Source: a virus. From it: a stretch of 41,512 nt of DNA. The stretch is from the UHGV virus genome UHGV-0155266; one strand, 5' to 3'. The notes beneath the pieces were generated by a model that saw nothing but the letters and a program-made list of their open reading frames with translations, did not search any database and was not told the origin of the DNA. A program made the translations under genes and the position numbers. This document shows, in pieces, positions 3,059 through 18,948 of this stretch; the stretch's first letter is position 1; every line of letters starts with the position of its first letter.

Positions 3059-3118
3059 TGTTTGAAGCTTTTTCATGAGTGTTAAGAAAATCAAGATGGC
3101 GTTGAATCGCTTGAATTT

Positions 3119-4249
3119 TCACAAAGCTACTTTGCTCCAGCCTTTCCCACGGTCATCATGATAACGATCGGTTTGTTGCTGTGTTTTGTGACCAAGTAGT
3201 TTTTGTGTATCTAATCCCTGTTCCTTGTAAAGGCGTTCAGATAAAGATCGTTGCTCATGGAATGTGGCAGGTGAACCTTCCCCCCAGTTAATTTCTGCTA
3301 AATCTCTTGCTTTACTAAAATTCATCGTCAATGTATTGGATTTTACCTGTGCTCCACGTTCTGCCTGCGAAGTTGAACGGAAAAAATGCACTAAGTATGG
3401 GCTGACTGCATAGTCACGGCAGCGAGCTACTACATCACGTAAACTCCAGTTAATCGCATTGAGGCGAAGAGAAAGCGGAATTGCGATTTTGCTCCCTGTC
3501 TTTTCTTGTACGACATGAAGATGATCATCCCAAATATCGCTAAATTTCATACGTGAAATATCACCTAACCGCTGACCAGTAACCAAGGCTAGCAGCATGG
3601 CATTTCCCATGTAACGATGGCTGGCATCTGCGATATCGAATATTTTTTTCCATTCTTCGAGGCTCAGCCGTTGTCGGGTAATTTTTCTTCTTGGCTGTTT
3701 AGTAGCTAATGCAGGGTTATAGCCAGGAGGTACTTCTCCGTAGTGCTGCGCCTCTTTGAAAACATCAATCAGGACGGATCGAACTACTTGTGCCATTCTC
3801 GGTTGCCCAGCGGCAATATACTCATCAAGTAATTGTGCAATATCCCGGACATCAACAGCTGAAATTAGCTTCAATCCTGCCCGTTCTCTAAGTAAGGAGA
3901 CAGGTTTGGCTTTCTGCTTGTAGGTGTTGAGCTTTATATCACCACTTTTCAGCCTGTCATTCTGGATCGCTTGATAGCGATCTAACCAAGTTGACGTTGT
4001 GATTGCTTTCCCTTTGCTGGTTGCGATCCTGTCACTGATGGCCAGAATCTGCCGGGTTCTTTGTTCAGCCAGGCGCGTATTGGCTTCAGTGGCAATAGCG
4101 ATAGCTTCAGCTTCGTTTGTTCCCAAAGCATGGAATTTCCCTGTTATTGGATGCTTATACCGCCAATAGACTTTATTTACCTTTCGGCTATAAAGCGGAT
4201 ATAAGTTAGGGACTGAAACATTATTCTTACGCGGTCTGGCTGCCATCAC
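3119..4249 (-). CDS. int: tyrosine integrase (lambda Int family)
   Basis: 376-aa ORF with the lambda-integrase-like layout (N-terminal arm-binding region, C-terminal catalytic region ending with conserved His/Tyr context); overlaps xis 3' end. Start is GTG at 4249 or ATG at 4246. Confidence 0.9.
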   Translation of the reverse strand: MMAARPRKNNVSVPNLYPLYSRKVNKVYWRYKHPITGKFHALGTNEAEAIAIATEANTRLAEQRTRQILAISDRIATSKGKAITTSTWLDRYQAIQNDRLKSGDIKLNTYKQKAKPVSLLRERAGLKLISAVDVRDIAQLLDEYIAAGQPRMAQVVRSVLIDVFKEAQHYGEVPPGYNPALATKQPRRKITRQRLSLEEWKKIFDIADASHRYMGNAMLLALVTGQRLGDISRMKFSDIWDDHLHVVQEKTGSKIAIPLSLRLNAINWSLRDVVARCRDYAVSPYLVHFFRSTSQAERGAQVKSNTLTMNFSKARDLAEINWGEGSPATFHEQRSLSERLYKEQGLDTQKLLGHKTQQQTDRYHDDRGKGWSKVAL

Positions 4250-5843: not shown

Positions 5844-6734
5844 ATGGAAGACGCGCTTTACGCTTTTAATTACACACAGAACCGGGACAAGTTATTTGCT
5901 AACTTGATTAGCATCATTGATGGAATCATTGCAGATGGAGTTGTCCGTGAAGAGGAGGTTCTTTACTTAGATACATGGTTACTTGAAGCAAAGCAGATTA
6001 TCAATAATGGAGTTATAAAAAGTCTATCAGCACGGGTGTCGGATATTCTTGCGGATGGAATAATCACATCAGAAGAACGTGATGACCTTAAAAATAGCCT
6101 TCTCCAAATACAGAGGGAAATTCTTGATATCCCTGAAATTGATTTTTACTCCAAGGATGTAGATGTCCATTTACTTAATGGACTATGTAAAGGATTAATT
6201 GCTGATCGGAACTTAACTCAAGAAGAAATAAGATATCTTAATTGGTGGCTTGAGCAAAATGGAGCTTTGAAGAACAACTACCCAGGAAAAAAACTTTATG
6301 CACTTGTAAAGGAAATTCTTAAAGATGGGGTTATTACTGAAGATGAGAGTTTAACTCTACATAAGGCATTAGTAGACTTCACAGGATGTGACTTGGAAAG
6401 TGGGGTGGTGGATGGTTTGGCGACCAGGCTGCCTATTGATGTAGGGGCTTCGATAGAGTTAGAGGGTAAAACCTATTGTCTTACAGGCACTTTTGTTGCA
6501 GGAAAGAGAGCCGTAGTTGAAAATTTGATTAAAAATGCTGGTGGGAACATCAGTAGTGGAATTACTCAAAAGTTGGATTTTTTAGTAATTGGGACGCTTT
6601 CCTCCCGTGATTGGAAATTCTCAAGTCACGGAAGGAAGATCGAAAAAGCTATATCTTATAGGGATGATAATGGTGCAAAACTTAAAATTATTTCTGAAGA
6701 AATGCTTTTCGATGCATTACCAAGTTCGCGATGA
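5844..6734 (+). CDS. BRCT-domain protein with four N-terminal tandem repeats
   Basis: ATG at 5844 after AGGAGG. C-terminus (GKTYCLTGTF...LDFLVIG...) follows the NAD-ligase-type BRCT pattern. N-terminus has four roughly 45-aa repeats sharing a D-G-[VI]-[VI]-T-x-[ED]-E motif. Confidence 0.75.
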   Translation: MEDALYAFNYTQNRDKLFANLISIIDGIIADGVVREEEVLYLDTWLLEAKQIINNGVIKSLSARVSDILADGIITSEERDDLKNSLLQIQREILDIPEIDFYSKDVDVHLLNGLCKGLIADRNLTQEEIRYLNWWLEQNGALKNNYPGKKLYALVKEILKDGVITEDESLTLHKALVDFTGCDLESGVVDGLATRLPIDVGASIELEGKTYCLTGTFVAGKRAVVENLIKNAGGNISSGITQKLDFLVIGTLSSRDWKFSSHGRKIEKAISYRDDNGAKLKIISEEMLFDALPSSR

Positions 6735-13345: not shown

Positions 13346-14098
13346 ATGAACCTTGAAGCCTTACCAAAATATTACTCCCCAAAATCTCCAAAATTGAGTG
13401 ATGACGCACCGGCGACAGGCTCGGGTGGTTTAACAATTACAGATGTGATGGCTGCGCAGGGGATGGTGCAGTCGAAAGCACCACTGGGTTTTGCCTTATT
13501 CCTGGCAAAAGTTGGTGTTCAGGATCCTCAGTTTGCGATTGAAGGTCTGCTCAATTACGCGATGGCACTGGATAACCCGACATTGAACAAATTGAGTGAA
13601 GAAACCCGGCTACAGATCATTCCTTACCTTGTGAATTTTGCCTTTGCTGATTATTCCAGATCTGCGGCAAGTAAGGCTCGCTGTGAGCATTGTGCTGGTA
13701 CTGGATTTCATAATGTATTGCGCGAAGTGGTGAAACACTCCAGAAACGGGGAATCTGTTATCAAGGAAGAGTGGGTGAAGGAACTATGTCAGCATTGTCA
13801 TGGTAAGGGAGAAGTCAGCACAGCGTGCAGAGGATGTAAGGGTAAAGGTATTGTCCTGGATGAAAAAAGAACCCGGCTTCATGGCACGCCTGTTTATAAG
13901 ATTTGTGGGCGTTGCAATGGAAACCGATTTAGCCGTTTACCAACCACACTGGCACGACGTCATGTCCAGAATCTGGTAACAGACCTGACGGATTATCAGT
14001 GGTACAAAGGATATGCAGACGTCATTGATAAACTGGTTACAAAGTGCTGGCAGGAAGAAGCATATGCTGAAGCGCAATTGAGAAAAGTGACAAGATAA
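13346..14098 (+). CDS. late-gene antitermination protein Q-like
   Basis: 250-aa ORF at the end of the early region with paired-Cys zinc-binding clusters (CEHCAGTG, CQHCHGKG, CRGCKGKG, CGRCNG); lysis and late genes follow. Confidence 0.65.
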   Translation: MNLEALPKYYSPKSPKLSDDAPATGSGGLTITDVMAAQGMVQSKAPLGFALFLAKVGVQDPQFAIEGLLNYAMALDNPTLNKLSEETRLQIIPYLVNFAFADYSRSAASKARCEHCAGTGFHNVLREVVKHSRNGESVIKEEWVKELCQHCHGKGEVSTACRGCKGKGIVLDEKRTRLHGTPVYKICGRCNGNRFSRLPTTLARRHVQNLVTDLTDYQWYKGYADVIDKLVTKCWQEEAYAEAQLRKVTR

Positions 14099-14252
14099 AT
14101 GATTTTCAACAAAGATAGCGACATGATGCTTGCATTTTTCAAAAAACATGGATAAGATTTTCTCAACGATGGGCTTTGTGTGTCTACCGTTGATAAGTCC
14201 AAAAAACCGCAGCCGAGCGGGTTAAATTATTTTTTCTTACACGGGGATATGG

Positions 14253-14783
14253 ATGTTATACCGAGATCTTCTGCCTATTTTCTCAGAAAGAACCATATTT
14301 GAAGCTCCTGAGGCTGAAAGAATACTTCGTGAGCAATATTCTATCATTGCCCCCTCTCCTGTAATTCAGGAGATTTATTATGGATTGGTAGGTGATGACA
14401 GATTTCAGAAGCTTTATGGGGATCTTGATATTGACCAAATTGAATGGAAATTGATTGAACTTCCCACTAAAAACTTTTTAACTATCGGGGATAATGCTAC
14501 TTGCCCTGATTTTTTGCATGAGGTCGTTGAAGATTACATGACCCGTAAAGGTGATGTATTTATGGATGATGAAATAAAAGCGCATTGGTGTAATTTTGGC
14601 ACATGGTGCGAACCACCATTTTTTATAGATCGAGCTTTGCTGAAAAGTAATACAACAGGGCTCCATTTAATGGAAGGGCATACAAGAGTTGGAACCCTGT
14701 TAGGGGCAGTTAAGTATAACTTCGTTAAGCTTGCTAATACTCATAAAATTTATTATGCGCAAGCAAAAGAATGTATTAAATAA
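14253..14783 (+). CDS. hypothetical protein (post-Q moron, AT-rich)
   Basis: 176-aa ORF in the slot directly downstream of Q, followed by its own terminator; AT-rich relative to neighbours; no recognisable motif. Confidence 0.6.
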   Translation: MLYRDLLPIFSERTIFEAPEAERILREQYSIIAPSPVIQEIYYGLVGDDRFQKLYGDLDIDQIEWKLIELPTKNFLTIGDNATCPDFLHEVVEDYMTRKGDVFMDDEIKAHWCNFGTWCEPPFFIDRALLKSNTTGLHLMEGHTRVGTLLGAVKYNFVKLANTHKIYYAQAKECIK

Positions 14784-14820
14784 GTTGAGTGAAATTACTG
14801 TTGGTTTTTTAACAATACTT

Positions 14821-14843
14821 ACCGCGTTCTCGCGGTTTTTTTA
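14821..14843 (+). terminator. rho-independent terminator
   Basis: ACCGCG-TTCT-CGCGGT hairpin followed by TTTTTTT. Confidence 0.6.
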
Positions 14844-14940
14844 TAAATTAAACATTGGTGCAGTACGGTAAACACGCTGGTGGTCGTGAATACTGACTGT
14901 TTATCTTGCTGGCTTTTTAGACAAGAGTTATTGGTATGTC

Positions 14941-15159
14941 ATGTTAACCAGAAGGGAAAAAGACATGCTAAAACAGCAAGATATGACAGAAACGGCGAAA
15001 GTTGTTTTTAATGAATTAAGCATCGAACCGGCAACAGTCGGGGAGATTGCACAAAACACATACCTTTCACGCGAACGCTGTCAGTTAATACTGACCCAGC
15101 TGGTTATGGCGGGGCTGGCAGATTACCAGTTCGGCTGTTACAGACGCCTTCAGCAATGA
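14941..15159 (+). CDS. small hypothetical protein, possible winged-HTH
   Basis: 72-aa ORF with weak RBS (alternative ATG at 14965 has AAGGGA); segment ATVGEIAQNTYLSRERCQLILTQLVMAGLADY is HTH-like. Confidence 0.4.
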   Translation: MLTRREKDMLKQQDMTETAKVVFNELSIEPATVGEIAQNTYLSRERCQLILTQLVMAGLADYQFGCYRRLQQ

Positions 15160-15308: not shown

Positions 15309-16361
15309 ATGAAAAATACTGTAAAAACAAACAGTGTTGATTTAATCAACGCTGATTGCCTGCATTTTATTCAGTCCCTGCCTGATGATTCCATTGACCT
15401 GATTGTTACCGATCCGCCGTACTTCAAGGTGAAACCCAACGGTTGGGACAATCAGTGGAAAGGGGACGAAGATTACCTTAAGTGGCTGGACCACTGTCTG
15501 GCCCAGTTCTGGCGGGTGTTGAAACCTGCCGGAAGCCTTTACCTGTTCTGTGGGCATCGCCTGGCATCTGATATTGAGATCATGATGCGTGAACGTTTCA
15601 ACGTGCTTAACCATATCATCTGGGCGAAGCCGTCCGGACGTTGGAATGGGTGTAATAAAGAAAGTCTGCGCGCATATTTTCCTGCCACAGAGCGCGTTCT
15701 GTTTGCTGAACATTACCAGGGGCCATATCGCGGCAAAAGTGACGGCTATGCGGCAAAAGAAAGGGAACTCAAACAGCACATAATGGCACCGCTGATATCG
15801 TATTTCAGGGATGCTCGTGCCGAACTGGGTATAACGGCAAAACAAATTGCCGAAGCCACAGGTAAGAAAAATATGGTTTCCCACTGGTTTGGTGCCAGTC
15901 AGTGGCAGTTGCCGAATGAGGCTGACTACCGGAAGTTACAGGCACTGTTTTCCCGTATAGCGGCAGAGAAGTTTCAGGAACAACAACTGGAACAACCACA
16001 CCACCAGTTGGTGGCATCTTATGATTCACTGAATCGCAAATATTCTGAATTGCTGGATGAGTTTAAATCTCTCCGGCGCTATTTCTCCGTATCAGTCTCC
16101 GTGCCTTATACCGATGTCTGGATGCATAAACCCGTTCAGTTCTACCCGGGTAAACATCCGTGTGAGAAACCGGCGGATATGCTCAGGCAAATAATCAATG
16201 CCAGTAGTCGACCCGGCGATCTGGTTGCTGATTTCTTTATGGGATCCGGTTCCACAATAAAAGCAGCAATGGCGCTGGGGCGTCGGGCGTTAGGTGTTGA
16301 GCTTGAGACAGAGCGGTTTAATCAGACGGTGAAAGAGGTAAGTGAACTGGTGGGGAAATAA
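15309..16361 (+). CDS. DNA methyltransferase (amino-methyltransferase, motif IV before motif I)
   Basis: DPPY near the N-terminus (IVTDPPYF) and an FxGxG-like SAM motif near the C-terminus (DFFMGSGST); no adjacent endonuclease gene. Confidence 0.85.
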   Translation: MKNTVKTNSVDLINADCLHFIQSLPDDSIDLIVTDPPYFKVKPNGWDNQWKGDEDYLKWLDHCLAQFWRVLKPAGSLYLFCGHRLASDIEIMMRERFNVLNHIIWAKPSGRWNGCNKESLRAYFPATERVLFAEHYQGPYRGKSDGYAAKERELKQHIMAPLISYFRDARAELGITAKQIAEATGKKNMVSHWFGASQWQLPNEADYRKLQALFSRIAAEKFQEQQLEQPHHQLVASYDSLNRKYSELLDEFKSLRRYFSVSVSVPYTDVWMHKPVQFYPGKHPCEKPADMLRQIINASSRPGDLVADFFMGSGSTIKAAMALGRRALGVELETERFNQTVKEVSELVGK

Positions 16362-17792: not shown

Positions 17793-18419
17793 TCAGTTGT
17801 CAAATGAATATACGTTAAAGGTATATGTCGACATAATTTCACCAAGTACCTCAATACATACACTTTTTTTATGAAAATTACTGGGAAATGAACTTAGCTC
17901 CTCAAGACATTGCACATAAGTGCTGATATCACTTGCATCACGTTCAAGGAATTTCACTTGACCAAAAGAAGGAGTTTTAATCTTGGTTCTTTGCTGGATT
18001 ATATGGATAAAGTGTGTAGTTGGTGAAACTATTACTCTTGAAATATCGGAAATGATGTCTTCTTGAACTTGCCGATAAAGTAAATCCTTTGGATAATGGT
18101 GTTTTATCTCGATGGTTGCAACATTGCCATTATGTTCAGACGTTAATATCGACTGGTTATAAAGTGATATGTCAACAGCGCCGATACCGAGTTTTGGATG
18201 CTCACTTAAAGCAGTTAGTGTGCTGATTTGATTGAGTATAACAACTAACTCATCACGTATTTGTGTTTCATGTTTGCGATTGTAGAAGTAGCCATTCAGT
18301 TCATTTAACTTTTTATGCATCCTATCGTGACTAATTGCTTCGATCAGTAAATCCTGAATCATACTTTTCTCTAGGTAATCCGAACGGTTGTAAGTGACAG
18401 TATTGTGCTGGCATGTCAT
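17793..18419 (-). CDS. hypothetical protein (208 aa), downstream gene of a minus-strand cassette
   Basis: AT-rich ORF opposite to the flanking lysis and packaging genes; no recognisable motif; weak RBS, so the start is uncertain. Confidence 0.6.
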   Translation of the reverse strand: MTCQHNTVTYNRSDYLEKSMIQDLLIEAISHDRMHKKLNELNGYFYNRKHETQIRDELVVILNQISTLTALSEHPKLGIGAVDISLYNQSILTSEHNGNVATIEIKHHYPKDLLYRQVQEDIISDISRVIVSPTTHFIHIIQQRTKIKTPSFGQVKFLERDASDISTYVQCLEELSSFPSNFHKKSVCIEVLGEIMSTYTFNVYSFDN

Positions 18420-18462
18420 TAATATGTAAAGGTATTGTGAATGCCAGAAAGATAACGAAGTA

Positions 18463-18798
18463 TCATCGATAGAAAAACTTTACAGCCCACTCGTAAACAG
18501 CTTTGTAAATCGGTTCATGGTAAATACTATCGATACTATTCAGATATGCGATCATCGCCTCCACAGTTGTAGTGGTTGTTTCTAATATTTCGATTATTGC
18601 AGGGCGGTCATCATCTTCATCGAAGTATTCGAACAGCAGTACAGGTTTACCATGCAATTCAGCATCTGAGACTCTAAGGTTACAACTACCGCTCAACTCA
18701 AAGTGAATTTTGTAATTACCTTCTACAGAATGGCCTACGGGGAAAAAGTATAGGGTGTCATCTTTGTTCAAAAGCCATGCCCATTCATAACTATTCAT
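18463..18798 (-). CDS. hypothetical acidic protein (111 aa), upstream gene of the minus-strand cassette
   Basis: ATG at 18798 preceded by AGGAG with a 7-nt spacer; the track ORF begins 6 codons earlier; contains an acidic patch (EYFDEDDDRPAIIEILE). Confidence 0.6.
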   Translation of the reverse strand: MNSYEWAWLLNKDDTLYFFPVGHSVEGNYKIHFELSGSCNLRVSDAELHGKPVLLFEYFDEDDDRPAIIEILETTTTTVEAMIAYLNSIDSIYHEPIYKAVYEWAVKFFYR

Positions 18799-18948
18799 TT
18801 GTGAACTCCTGTTCATTGAGTTTCAACAACTATCAACTACATCCAGCGAAGCATAAAAGATCGTTTATGGCAAAACCGGAATGGAGTGCGATTCGATTCT
18901 GAGAAGGGTGCCACGTATCGTACGCGAACCATCCAAGAGGATTATGCA

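Follow-up and report, generated by a model that had tools for sequence, protein, structure and literature searches.

In phage lambda the late promoter pR' and the late terminator tR' delimit an interval of 194 nucleotides (nt), and the classical morons of lambdoid phages are bor and lom of lambda, together with stx, which lies downstream of the antiterminator gene Q. The definition of a moron reportedly goes back to Juhala et al. in 2000, for HK97 and HK022. This report concerns a locus that is a moron-like cargo and, we propose, a functional pR'-tR' interval, both known kinds of element: in UHGV virus genome UHGV-0155266 (41,512 nt, all of which is called the window here), an open reading frame (ORF) of 176 amino acids (aa), belonging to an uncharacterized protein family, has been inserted into tR' behind Q. 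We lean toward a reading in which this promoterless cassette in the late leader is expressed in the lysogen as well as upon induction and encodes a nucleoside triphosphate (NTP)-binding accessory protein of phage conflict.

The closest described units are lambda pR'-6S RNA-tR' and StxS of Shiga toxin (Stx) phages, which combine a constitutive late promoter, a Q-loading pause element, and a terminator overridden by Q; pR' is constitutively active in lysogens and its transcripts terminate at tR', so that the stretch between the two is read in lysogens and can serve a function, and the StxS interval is 258 nt long (PMC7547250). We propose the same for the cargo interval, which would span ~680 nt instead of 194 nt in lambda or 258 nt in Stx phages and encodes a 176-aa protein, not a short RNA. 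The ancestral tR' is split here, and a new terminator probably takes over.

With morons the locus shares dispensability, deviant base composition (GC 0.36 versus 0.46 to 0.49), a mosaic junction, absence from close relatives, and a terminator at its end. Unlike classical morons, it has no promoter of its own and would borrow pR', and it lies upstream of the functional late terminator, whereas stx lies downstream.

An insertion between the hairpin and the T-run of tR'

The ends of the cassette can be read directly from an alignment to phages without it. The flanks of the cargo region matched 32 phage records, whereas the middle did not. In vB_EcoM-720R4 both flanks are contiguous, and this empty site runs from Q through the promoter region and the hairpin AACCCGCCACTGAGCGGGTT with its T-run into TTGGTGCAGTAC, followed by a 72-aa winged-helix ORF, a DNA methylase, and lysis genes. 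Homology between the window and the empty site ends directly after GCGGGTT (14223) and resumes at ~14850 to 14855; the insert falls precisely at the border of hairpin and T-run in the ancestral tR' and has its own terminator at its right end. The cassette and its borders comprise the following features.

14205-14223, plus strand: remnant of the ancestral tR' hairpin, AACCGCAGCCGAGCGGGTT, aligning to AACCCGCCACTGAGCGGGTT plus TTTT of the empty site, with its stem broken and off its T-run
14224-14252, plus strand: left end of the insert and 5' leader, AAATTATTTTTTCTTACACGGGGATATGG, with ribosome binding site GGGGA at 14243-14247; junction from the alignment to the empty site
14253-14783, plus strand: cargo gene, 176 aa from an ATG start, with an N-terminal helical region (residues ~1-58), a probable ParB/Srx-like domain (~60-172), and the motif E141-G142-H143-T144-R145; phrog_8867
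14821-14842, plus strand: intrinsic terminator at the right end of the insert, ACCGCG-TTCT-CGCGGT at 14821-14836 with a seven-T run at 14836-14842
14855-14940, plus strand: resumed phage backbone, beginning TTGGTGCAGTAC, as placed by aligning the window with Ayreon and the empty site; next come the 72-aa winged-helix ORF, the methylase, and the lysis genes

A preliminary description had noted an AT-rich 176-aa ORF directly after the antiterminator gene, followed by a strong terminator, and had read it as a moron with its own terminator. The coordinates and the identity of Q (PF03589) agree with that placement, with 154 nt between the stop codon of Q and the start of the ORF and the ribosome binding site 5 nt before its ATG. 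GC content is 0.369 in the ORF and 0.360 in the whole insert, compared to 0.461 in Q and 0.493 in the window, and the terminator at 14821-14842 is indeed strong (−11.4 kcal/mol, z = −3.06, with none of 200 shuffled sequences as stable). The ORF is a genuine gene under purifying selection, because dN/dS among E. coli alleles is 0.14 to 0.37, pN across genera (0.28 to 0.38) is far below a saturated pS of ~0.75 to 0.8, the family has 297 representatives, and the structure model is of high confidence (see below).

Among 5,426 complete E. coli genomes, 90 carry the gene, always at this junction, and 1,762 match part of the empty-site sequence. Carrier strains include extraintestinal pathogenic (ExPEC), avian pathogenic (APEC), and enterotoxigenic (ETEC) E. 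coli. In Ayreon the same slot (L001, 2596-3313) holds a different gene, a 141-aa lipoprotein-like ORF (phrog_4748, beginning MTVMKKVLIAAIGFCLVGCAG), placed after one complete copy of the tR' hairpin, AACCCGCCACTGAGCGGGTTTTTT, with a second copy after the ORF. An equally long ORF stands at this offset in an annotated Stx2k phage, and the flanks are matched identically in mEp460 and the Stx2c phages (the alternative-cargo ORF is also listed for L003 and L004). Stx phages with this backbone have stx further downstream and a different gene in the slot. The alternative cargo of Ayreon, mEp460, and the Stx2c/Stx2k phages thus resembles the 176-aa gene in its insertion point, flanks, AT richness, and lack of an assigned function; it differs in following a complete tR' with a second copy behind, in having 140 nt upstream that could hold a promoter, and in encoding an unrelated protein.

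Because the slot is empty in vB_EcoM-720R4 and filled by another gene in these phages, the 176-aa gene is dispensable cargo. The 29 nt from the junction to the ATG (14224-14252) are too short for a sigma-70 promoter, and a promoter scan found no promoter-like site on the plus strand there, which argues that the gene has no promoter of its own. Sequence comparison thus resolves 14224 to ~14850 into a dispensable, compositionally foreign, promoterless cassette of leader, one gene, and terminator. Having a terminator and no promoter, the cassette must be transcribed from pR' or by readthrough from further upstream, so the moron of the preliminary description stands as AT-rich dispensable cargo with a terminator and falls as a self-contained unit.

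The tR' hairpin, AACCCGCC-loop-GCGGGTT(T)n, hardly differs between phages with the unrelated Q families PF03589 and PF06323 (positions compared: window 14205-14223, L005 ~3104-3130, L013 4949-4970, L007 ~6425-6450, and the hairpins of L044 and L054), and it coincides with the mosaic break points of the partial matches in the 1,762 E. coli genomes. On these two grounds it is a candidate recombination site, a short conserved boundary sequence for mosaic exchange that may have brought cargo into the slot.

Directly after the slot, in empty-site and occupied phages, lies the 72-aa winged-helix ORF (14941-15159; phrog_331, with weak TrmB/MarR-like matches). An N6/N4 DNA methylase (15309-16361) is encoded two genes downstream of the cargo gene. 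The genes beyond the slot were identified by their Pfam and PHROG matches.

The promoter upstream of the cargo gene is pR'

Two parts of the late-control unit, a lambda-family Q and a pR' with a −10-like pause element at its start site, are present upstream of the cassette.

13346-14098, plus strand: Q antiterminator gene, 250 aa, lambda-Q family (PF03589, 1.6e-53; phrog_127, 4e-108)
14130-14158, plus strand: late promoter pR', −35 TTGCAT at 14130-14135, a 17-nt spacer, and −10 TAAGAT at 14153-14158
14162-14173, plus strand: predicted start site (A at ~14165) and −10-like AACGAT pause element, CTCAACGATGGG, with function inferred from lambda

The Q protein is 35% identical to lambda Q (E = 2e-41), which itself matches PF03589. 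Relative to lambda Q it has a 48-aa insertion at about residues 122 to 169 that adds extra CxxC pairs and has a sub-threshold match to DnaJ_CXXCXGXG.

The region from 14130 to 14173 reads TTGCAT, 17 nt, TAAGAT, TTTCTC, AACGATGGG, and its lambda counterpart reads TTGACT, 17 nt, TAAATT, TGACTC, AACGATGGG. The 12-mer CTCAACGATGGG is identical in lambda at the 6S RNA start (lambda record position 44587), and in lambda it covers both that start and AACGAT, the pause element used for loading Q. The promoter is invariant in four related phages and prophages, and its predicted start at ~14165 lies 88 nt before the cargo ATG. It goes uncalled in a generic promoter scan (8 of 12 positions match the consensus); homology to lambda and what is established about lambda pR' are the basis of the assignment. 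A putative late promoter between 14099 and 14252 had been suggested earlier, and one is present there; by this homology it is the phage's own pR', and the cargo is left without one.

Decay of the upstream hairpin

Of special interest for expression of the cargo gene is the state of the hairpin between pR' and the insert. In the empty site, tR' has 10 pairs (−13.5 kcal/mol) with U6 directly after. Most E. coli copies (83 of 90, for example IHE3034) keep a 7-bp tR' stem intact, followed by UUAAAUUAUUUUUU. The window allele, found in the remaining 7, has one further stem-breaking substitution that leaves 4 bp and −6.8 kcal/mol, no better than shuffled sequences, and the same interrupted run; in no E. 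coli copy does the T-run still abut the hairpin. The terminator scan was unsuited to ranking these hairpins, since it missed both the intact empty-site tR' and the window remnant yet called the IHE3034-type remnant terminator-like.

These comparisons suggest a weakened ancestral tR' in every E. coli copy, one that has probably lost its activity in the window. No canonical terminator follows pR' before the one at 14821-14842, which lies behind the cargo gene and is most likely the functional replacement of tR'.

Predicted expression in lysogens and the case for strict Q dependence

We infer from the activity of pR' in lysogens (PMC7547250) that the promoter is constitutive here as well, and, because the first canonical terminator lies behind the gene, a pR' mRNA of ~680 nt covering the cargo gene is predicted in the lysogen. 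Such a transcript would be the protein-coding counterpart of lambda 6S RNA or StxS. Upon induction, Q-modified polymerase would pass 14821-14842 into the methylase and lysis genes, making the cargo gene the first, Q-boosted late cistron. In the window allele, the gene is therefore predicted to be expressed on induction and probably also while the prophage is dormant.

The strongest competitor, which we consider possible without thinking it probable, is that Q is strictly required for this first late gene. In lysogens it would then be silenced by the upstream hairpin, whose U-run is displaced, and by control of readthrough in general, and the protein would act only in the lytic cycle, for instance as a counter-defense or DNA-transaction factor just before lysis and packaging. 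Relatives bear directly on this. Prophages of Hafnia, Citrobacter, and Enterobacter and 26 IMG/VR viral contigs encode homologs at 47 to 58% identity, and at every locus with upstream phage genes preserved the homolog adjoins a Q gene. At the Hafnia, Citrobacter, and Enterobacter loci, where Q has a family call, that family is another one, PF06323. Citrobacter, L044/L045, and L054 have an 82-type pR' and an intact tR' (AACCCGCC...GCGGGTTTTTT), then the ATG after ~28 nt with the junction sequence conserved, and Enterobacter and L053 share this arrangement. In Hafnia the gene begins 36 nt after Q, and pR'/tR' lie ~0.8 to 0.9 kb further downstream. In most lineages a hairpin and its T-run are found no more than ~0.4 kb after the gene.

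Several of these observations weigh against expression in the lysogen. In four other lineages the gene starts 24 to 30 nt past an intact tR', or immediately follows Q, which leaves no space for a promoter; GCGGGTTTTTTGTATGTTTCnACAAAGGAATTGGTGATG at the junction is conserved even though the encoded proteins are only 47 to 54% identical to the window protein; and the majority E. coli allele retains its 7-bp hairpin. Tight linkage to Q and late transcription is thus the older and commoner regime. On the other side, strict Q dependence has to contend with a T-run that is off the hairpin in 90 of 90 E. coli copies, with the 4-bp stem of the window, and with the same hairpin decay in a separate lineage. 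In the IMG/VR contigs L046-L052 the tR' hairpin is degenerate (AAGCCTGCTGAGGAACGGGATTTTT) and lies ~40 to 65 nt upstream of the homologous ORF, with a hairpin and T-run after the gene. The E. coli arrangement, and independently that of L046-L052, look derived and would raise basal expression.

A lytic role draws further support from the observation that phage ParB-fold domains are often tied to DNA methylases, with a proposed antidefense role (PMC12704722), and a methylase lies two genes downstream in the window; phages with the methylase and without the cargo gene exist, which speaks against such a role. A functional link to the downstream methylase as a requirement was rejected on that ground and because no methylase is among the downstream genes listed for the Citrobacter and Enterobacter copies.

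Two further points concern the other lineages. The layout of L046-L052 parallels the E. coli arrangement in a separate lineage. In the Hafnia prophage, a 197-aa ORF on the minus strand (L007, 5622-6215), with no Pfam or PHROG match, is convergent with the ParB/Srx-like gene and lies between Q and pR', so that in this lineage the late promoter comes after both genes.

The cargo protein probably has a ParB/Srx fold

The function of the ORF had been given as unknown. The 176-aa protein had no match in Pfam, NCBIfam, or PADLOC-DB 2.0 (E of 1), and its sole PHROG match, phrog_8867, has no function assigned there. Matches to holin, endolysin, spanin, and virion families, sought in Pfam, NCBIfam, and PHROG, were absent. 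Profile searches nevertheless uncovered a broad family, with 297 representatives at 50% clustering and 313 matches in a second search. Members are mostly ~170 aa, with an additional ~260-aa subfamily, most come from metagenomes, and none has an informative name. Scans of 90 relatives against Pfam at E of 0.01 and 10 gave scattered chance matches only (CUE, DUF1281), none of them ParB, and no Pfam match was found for the C-terminal extension of ten long (~260-aa) relatives. Sequence searches of the PDB with two profiles found no match, and literature searches found no paper on the RefSeq accession, the PHROG number, or ParB/Srx together with phage.

Structure prediction and remote homology, the checks first suggested for this ORF, narrowed the protein to a probable ParB/Srx-fold nucleotide-binding protein. 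The AlphaFold model from a 90-sequence alignment has a predicted local distance difference test score (pLDDT) of 93.3 and a predicted template modeling score (pTM) of 0.88. Across the 90 diverse members, P34, W65, W112, W118, G142, and R145 are invariant, and E141, H143, and T144, among others, are at least 90% conserved. In the model, EGHTR lies where strand 137-141 passes into helix 143-155, and a GxxR motif, with G142 and R145 invariant, occupies the strand-helix junction at which the ParB/sulfiredoxin (Srx) fold binds NTP phosphates. A Foldseek search of the PDB ranked sulfiredoxin first, without significance (E = 0.27). HHalign gave 0.9% probability against one ParB_N protein and 2% against a 20-sequence ParB_N alignment, and the single short match at 2% was in the expected register, placing PPFFID...LHLMEGHTRVG on NPVLIDE...IIAGHGRVL. 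We consider it likely that the C-terminal two thirds adopt a ParB/Srx fold.

The protein is neither a partition ParB nor a sulfiredoxin, because it has no helix-turn-helix (HTH), no box III, and no sulfiredoxin cysteine. As a partition ParB it was ruled out at 176 aa, ending one strand after the GxxR helix, with no HTH match, no box III, and no parA neighbor; as a sulfiredoxin, it has EGHTR in place of GCHR and its family has no invariant Cys. Nor does it belong to PF02195 by Pfam, which matched neither the protein nor any of the 90 relatives at E of 10. The nearest comparisons are minimal ParB/Srx-fold proteins, namely, sulfiredoxin, PadC, the plasmid pSa fertility inhibitor Osa, the ToxB contact-dependent inhibition (CDI) toxin domain, and single-domain phage ParB-CTPase proteins (PMC12704722; bioRxiv 10.64898/2026.05.05.722872). 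Unlike these, the 176-aa family has no detectable PF02195 homology, Srx catalytic Cys, or box III, and it is peculiar in its helical N terminus of ~58 residues and its three invariant tryptophans.

Possible roles of the cargo protein

Other minimal members of the ParB/Srx fold bind CTP, ATP, or GTP (PMC12704722; bioRxiv preprint on ToxB). By analogy, the cargo product would be expected to be a small cytoplasmic NTP-binding or NTP-hydrolyzing protein. Its predicted role is an accessory one in conflict, either exclusion or defense for the lysogen or counter-defense in lytic growth, and not lysis, morphogenesis, or secreted virulence. The first alternative, a benefit to the lysogen, and the second, a lytic-phase counter-defense function or DNA or nucleotide transaction, carry roughly equal weight, and secreted virulence carries little.

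Distant members of the family lie in accessory regions of mobile elements near integrases, resolvases, a relaxase, ParDE and YoeB toxin-antitoxin pairs, a KAP NTPase with DUF4365, and Abi_C, with no conserved partner gene among these neighborhoods. Marine and environmental bacteria and their mobile elements also carry homologs.

A purely lysogen-serving gene, in which the ParB/Srx domain is the NTP-dependent sensor or effector of a single-protein antiphage defense or superinfection exclusion system deployed by the prophage, is unlikely. Exclusion cargo had been suggested for the slot, and the gene is indeed dispensable cargo after Q; it matches no known defense protein in PADLOC-DB 2.0, the 176 aa contain no recognizable effector domain, and it has no conserved partner gene. 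Its placement in most lineages also makes expression Q dependent. A literature search on prophage defense hotspots returned, among titles and abstracts, nothing specific to this slot or family.

We give little credence to a third possibility, that the ParB/Srx resemblance is convergent or spurious and the protein has a different new fold, for example as a small protein-binding adaptor or an immunity-type protein. Hardly credible is virulence or lysogenic-conversion cargo in the manner of stx, bor, or lom, with the protein secreted or at the cell surface and directed at an animal host: the slot after Q is where stx lies and carriers include ExPEC, APEC, and ETEC, but the analogy with stx is not borne out by a protein with no signal peptide, lipobox, hydrophobic segment, or toxin homology, whose homologs live in marine and environmental bacteria, and Stx phages keep stx further downstream with another gene in the slot.

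Elsewhere in the window, a second AT-rich block (17793-18816, minus strand; GC 0.35 to 0.36) lies between the Rz gene and the packaging region and contains two ORFs in reverse orientation, one of 208 aa (phrog_12494) and one of 117 aa (phrog_14397), with no Pfam match.

Implications for lambdoid prophages

The most far-reaching version of these proposals, which we regard as improbable, is that lambdoid phages of several enterobacterial genera keep an undescribed minimal ParB/Srx-fold NTPase as the first cistron under Q/pR', and that in E. coli the late terminator was rebuilt around the gene so that constitutive pR' yields a protein in the lysogen instead of an RNA of the 6S/StxS type. Such a protein would act in conflict between phages or between phage and host as a new nucleotide-dependent factor, or it might modulate late transcription itself. 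The protein itself founds a broad unannotated family on mobile elements and appears to extend the ParB/Srx nucleotide-binding fold beyond profile-based surveys; being small and predicted with high confidence, it is easy and cheap to test biochemically.

The promoter pR' is one of the few that stay on in a repressed lambdoid prophage, and the products known so far from its short transcript are RNAs (6S and StxS). If the reading favored here is true, placing a protein gene before the effective late terminator would be a simple, promoterless route to lysogenic conversion, one that can be searched for in other prophages.
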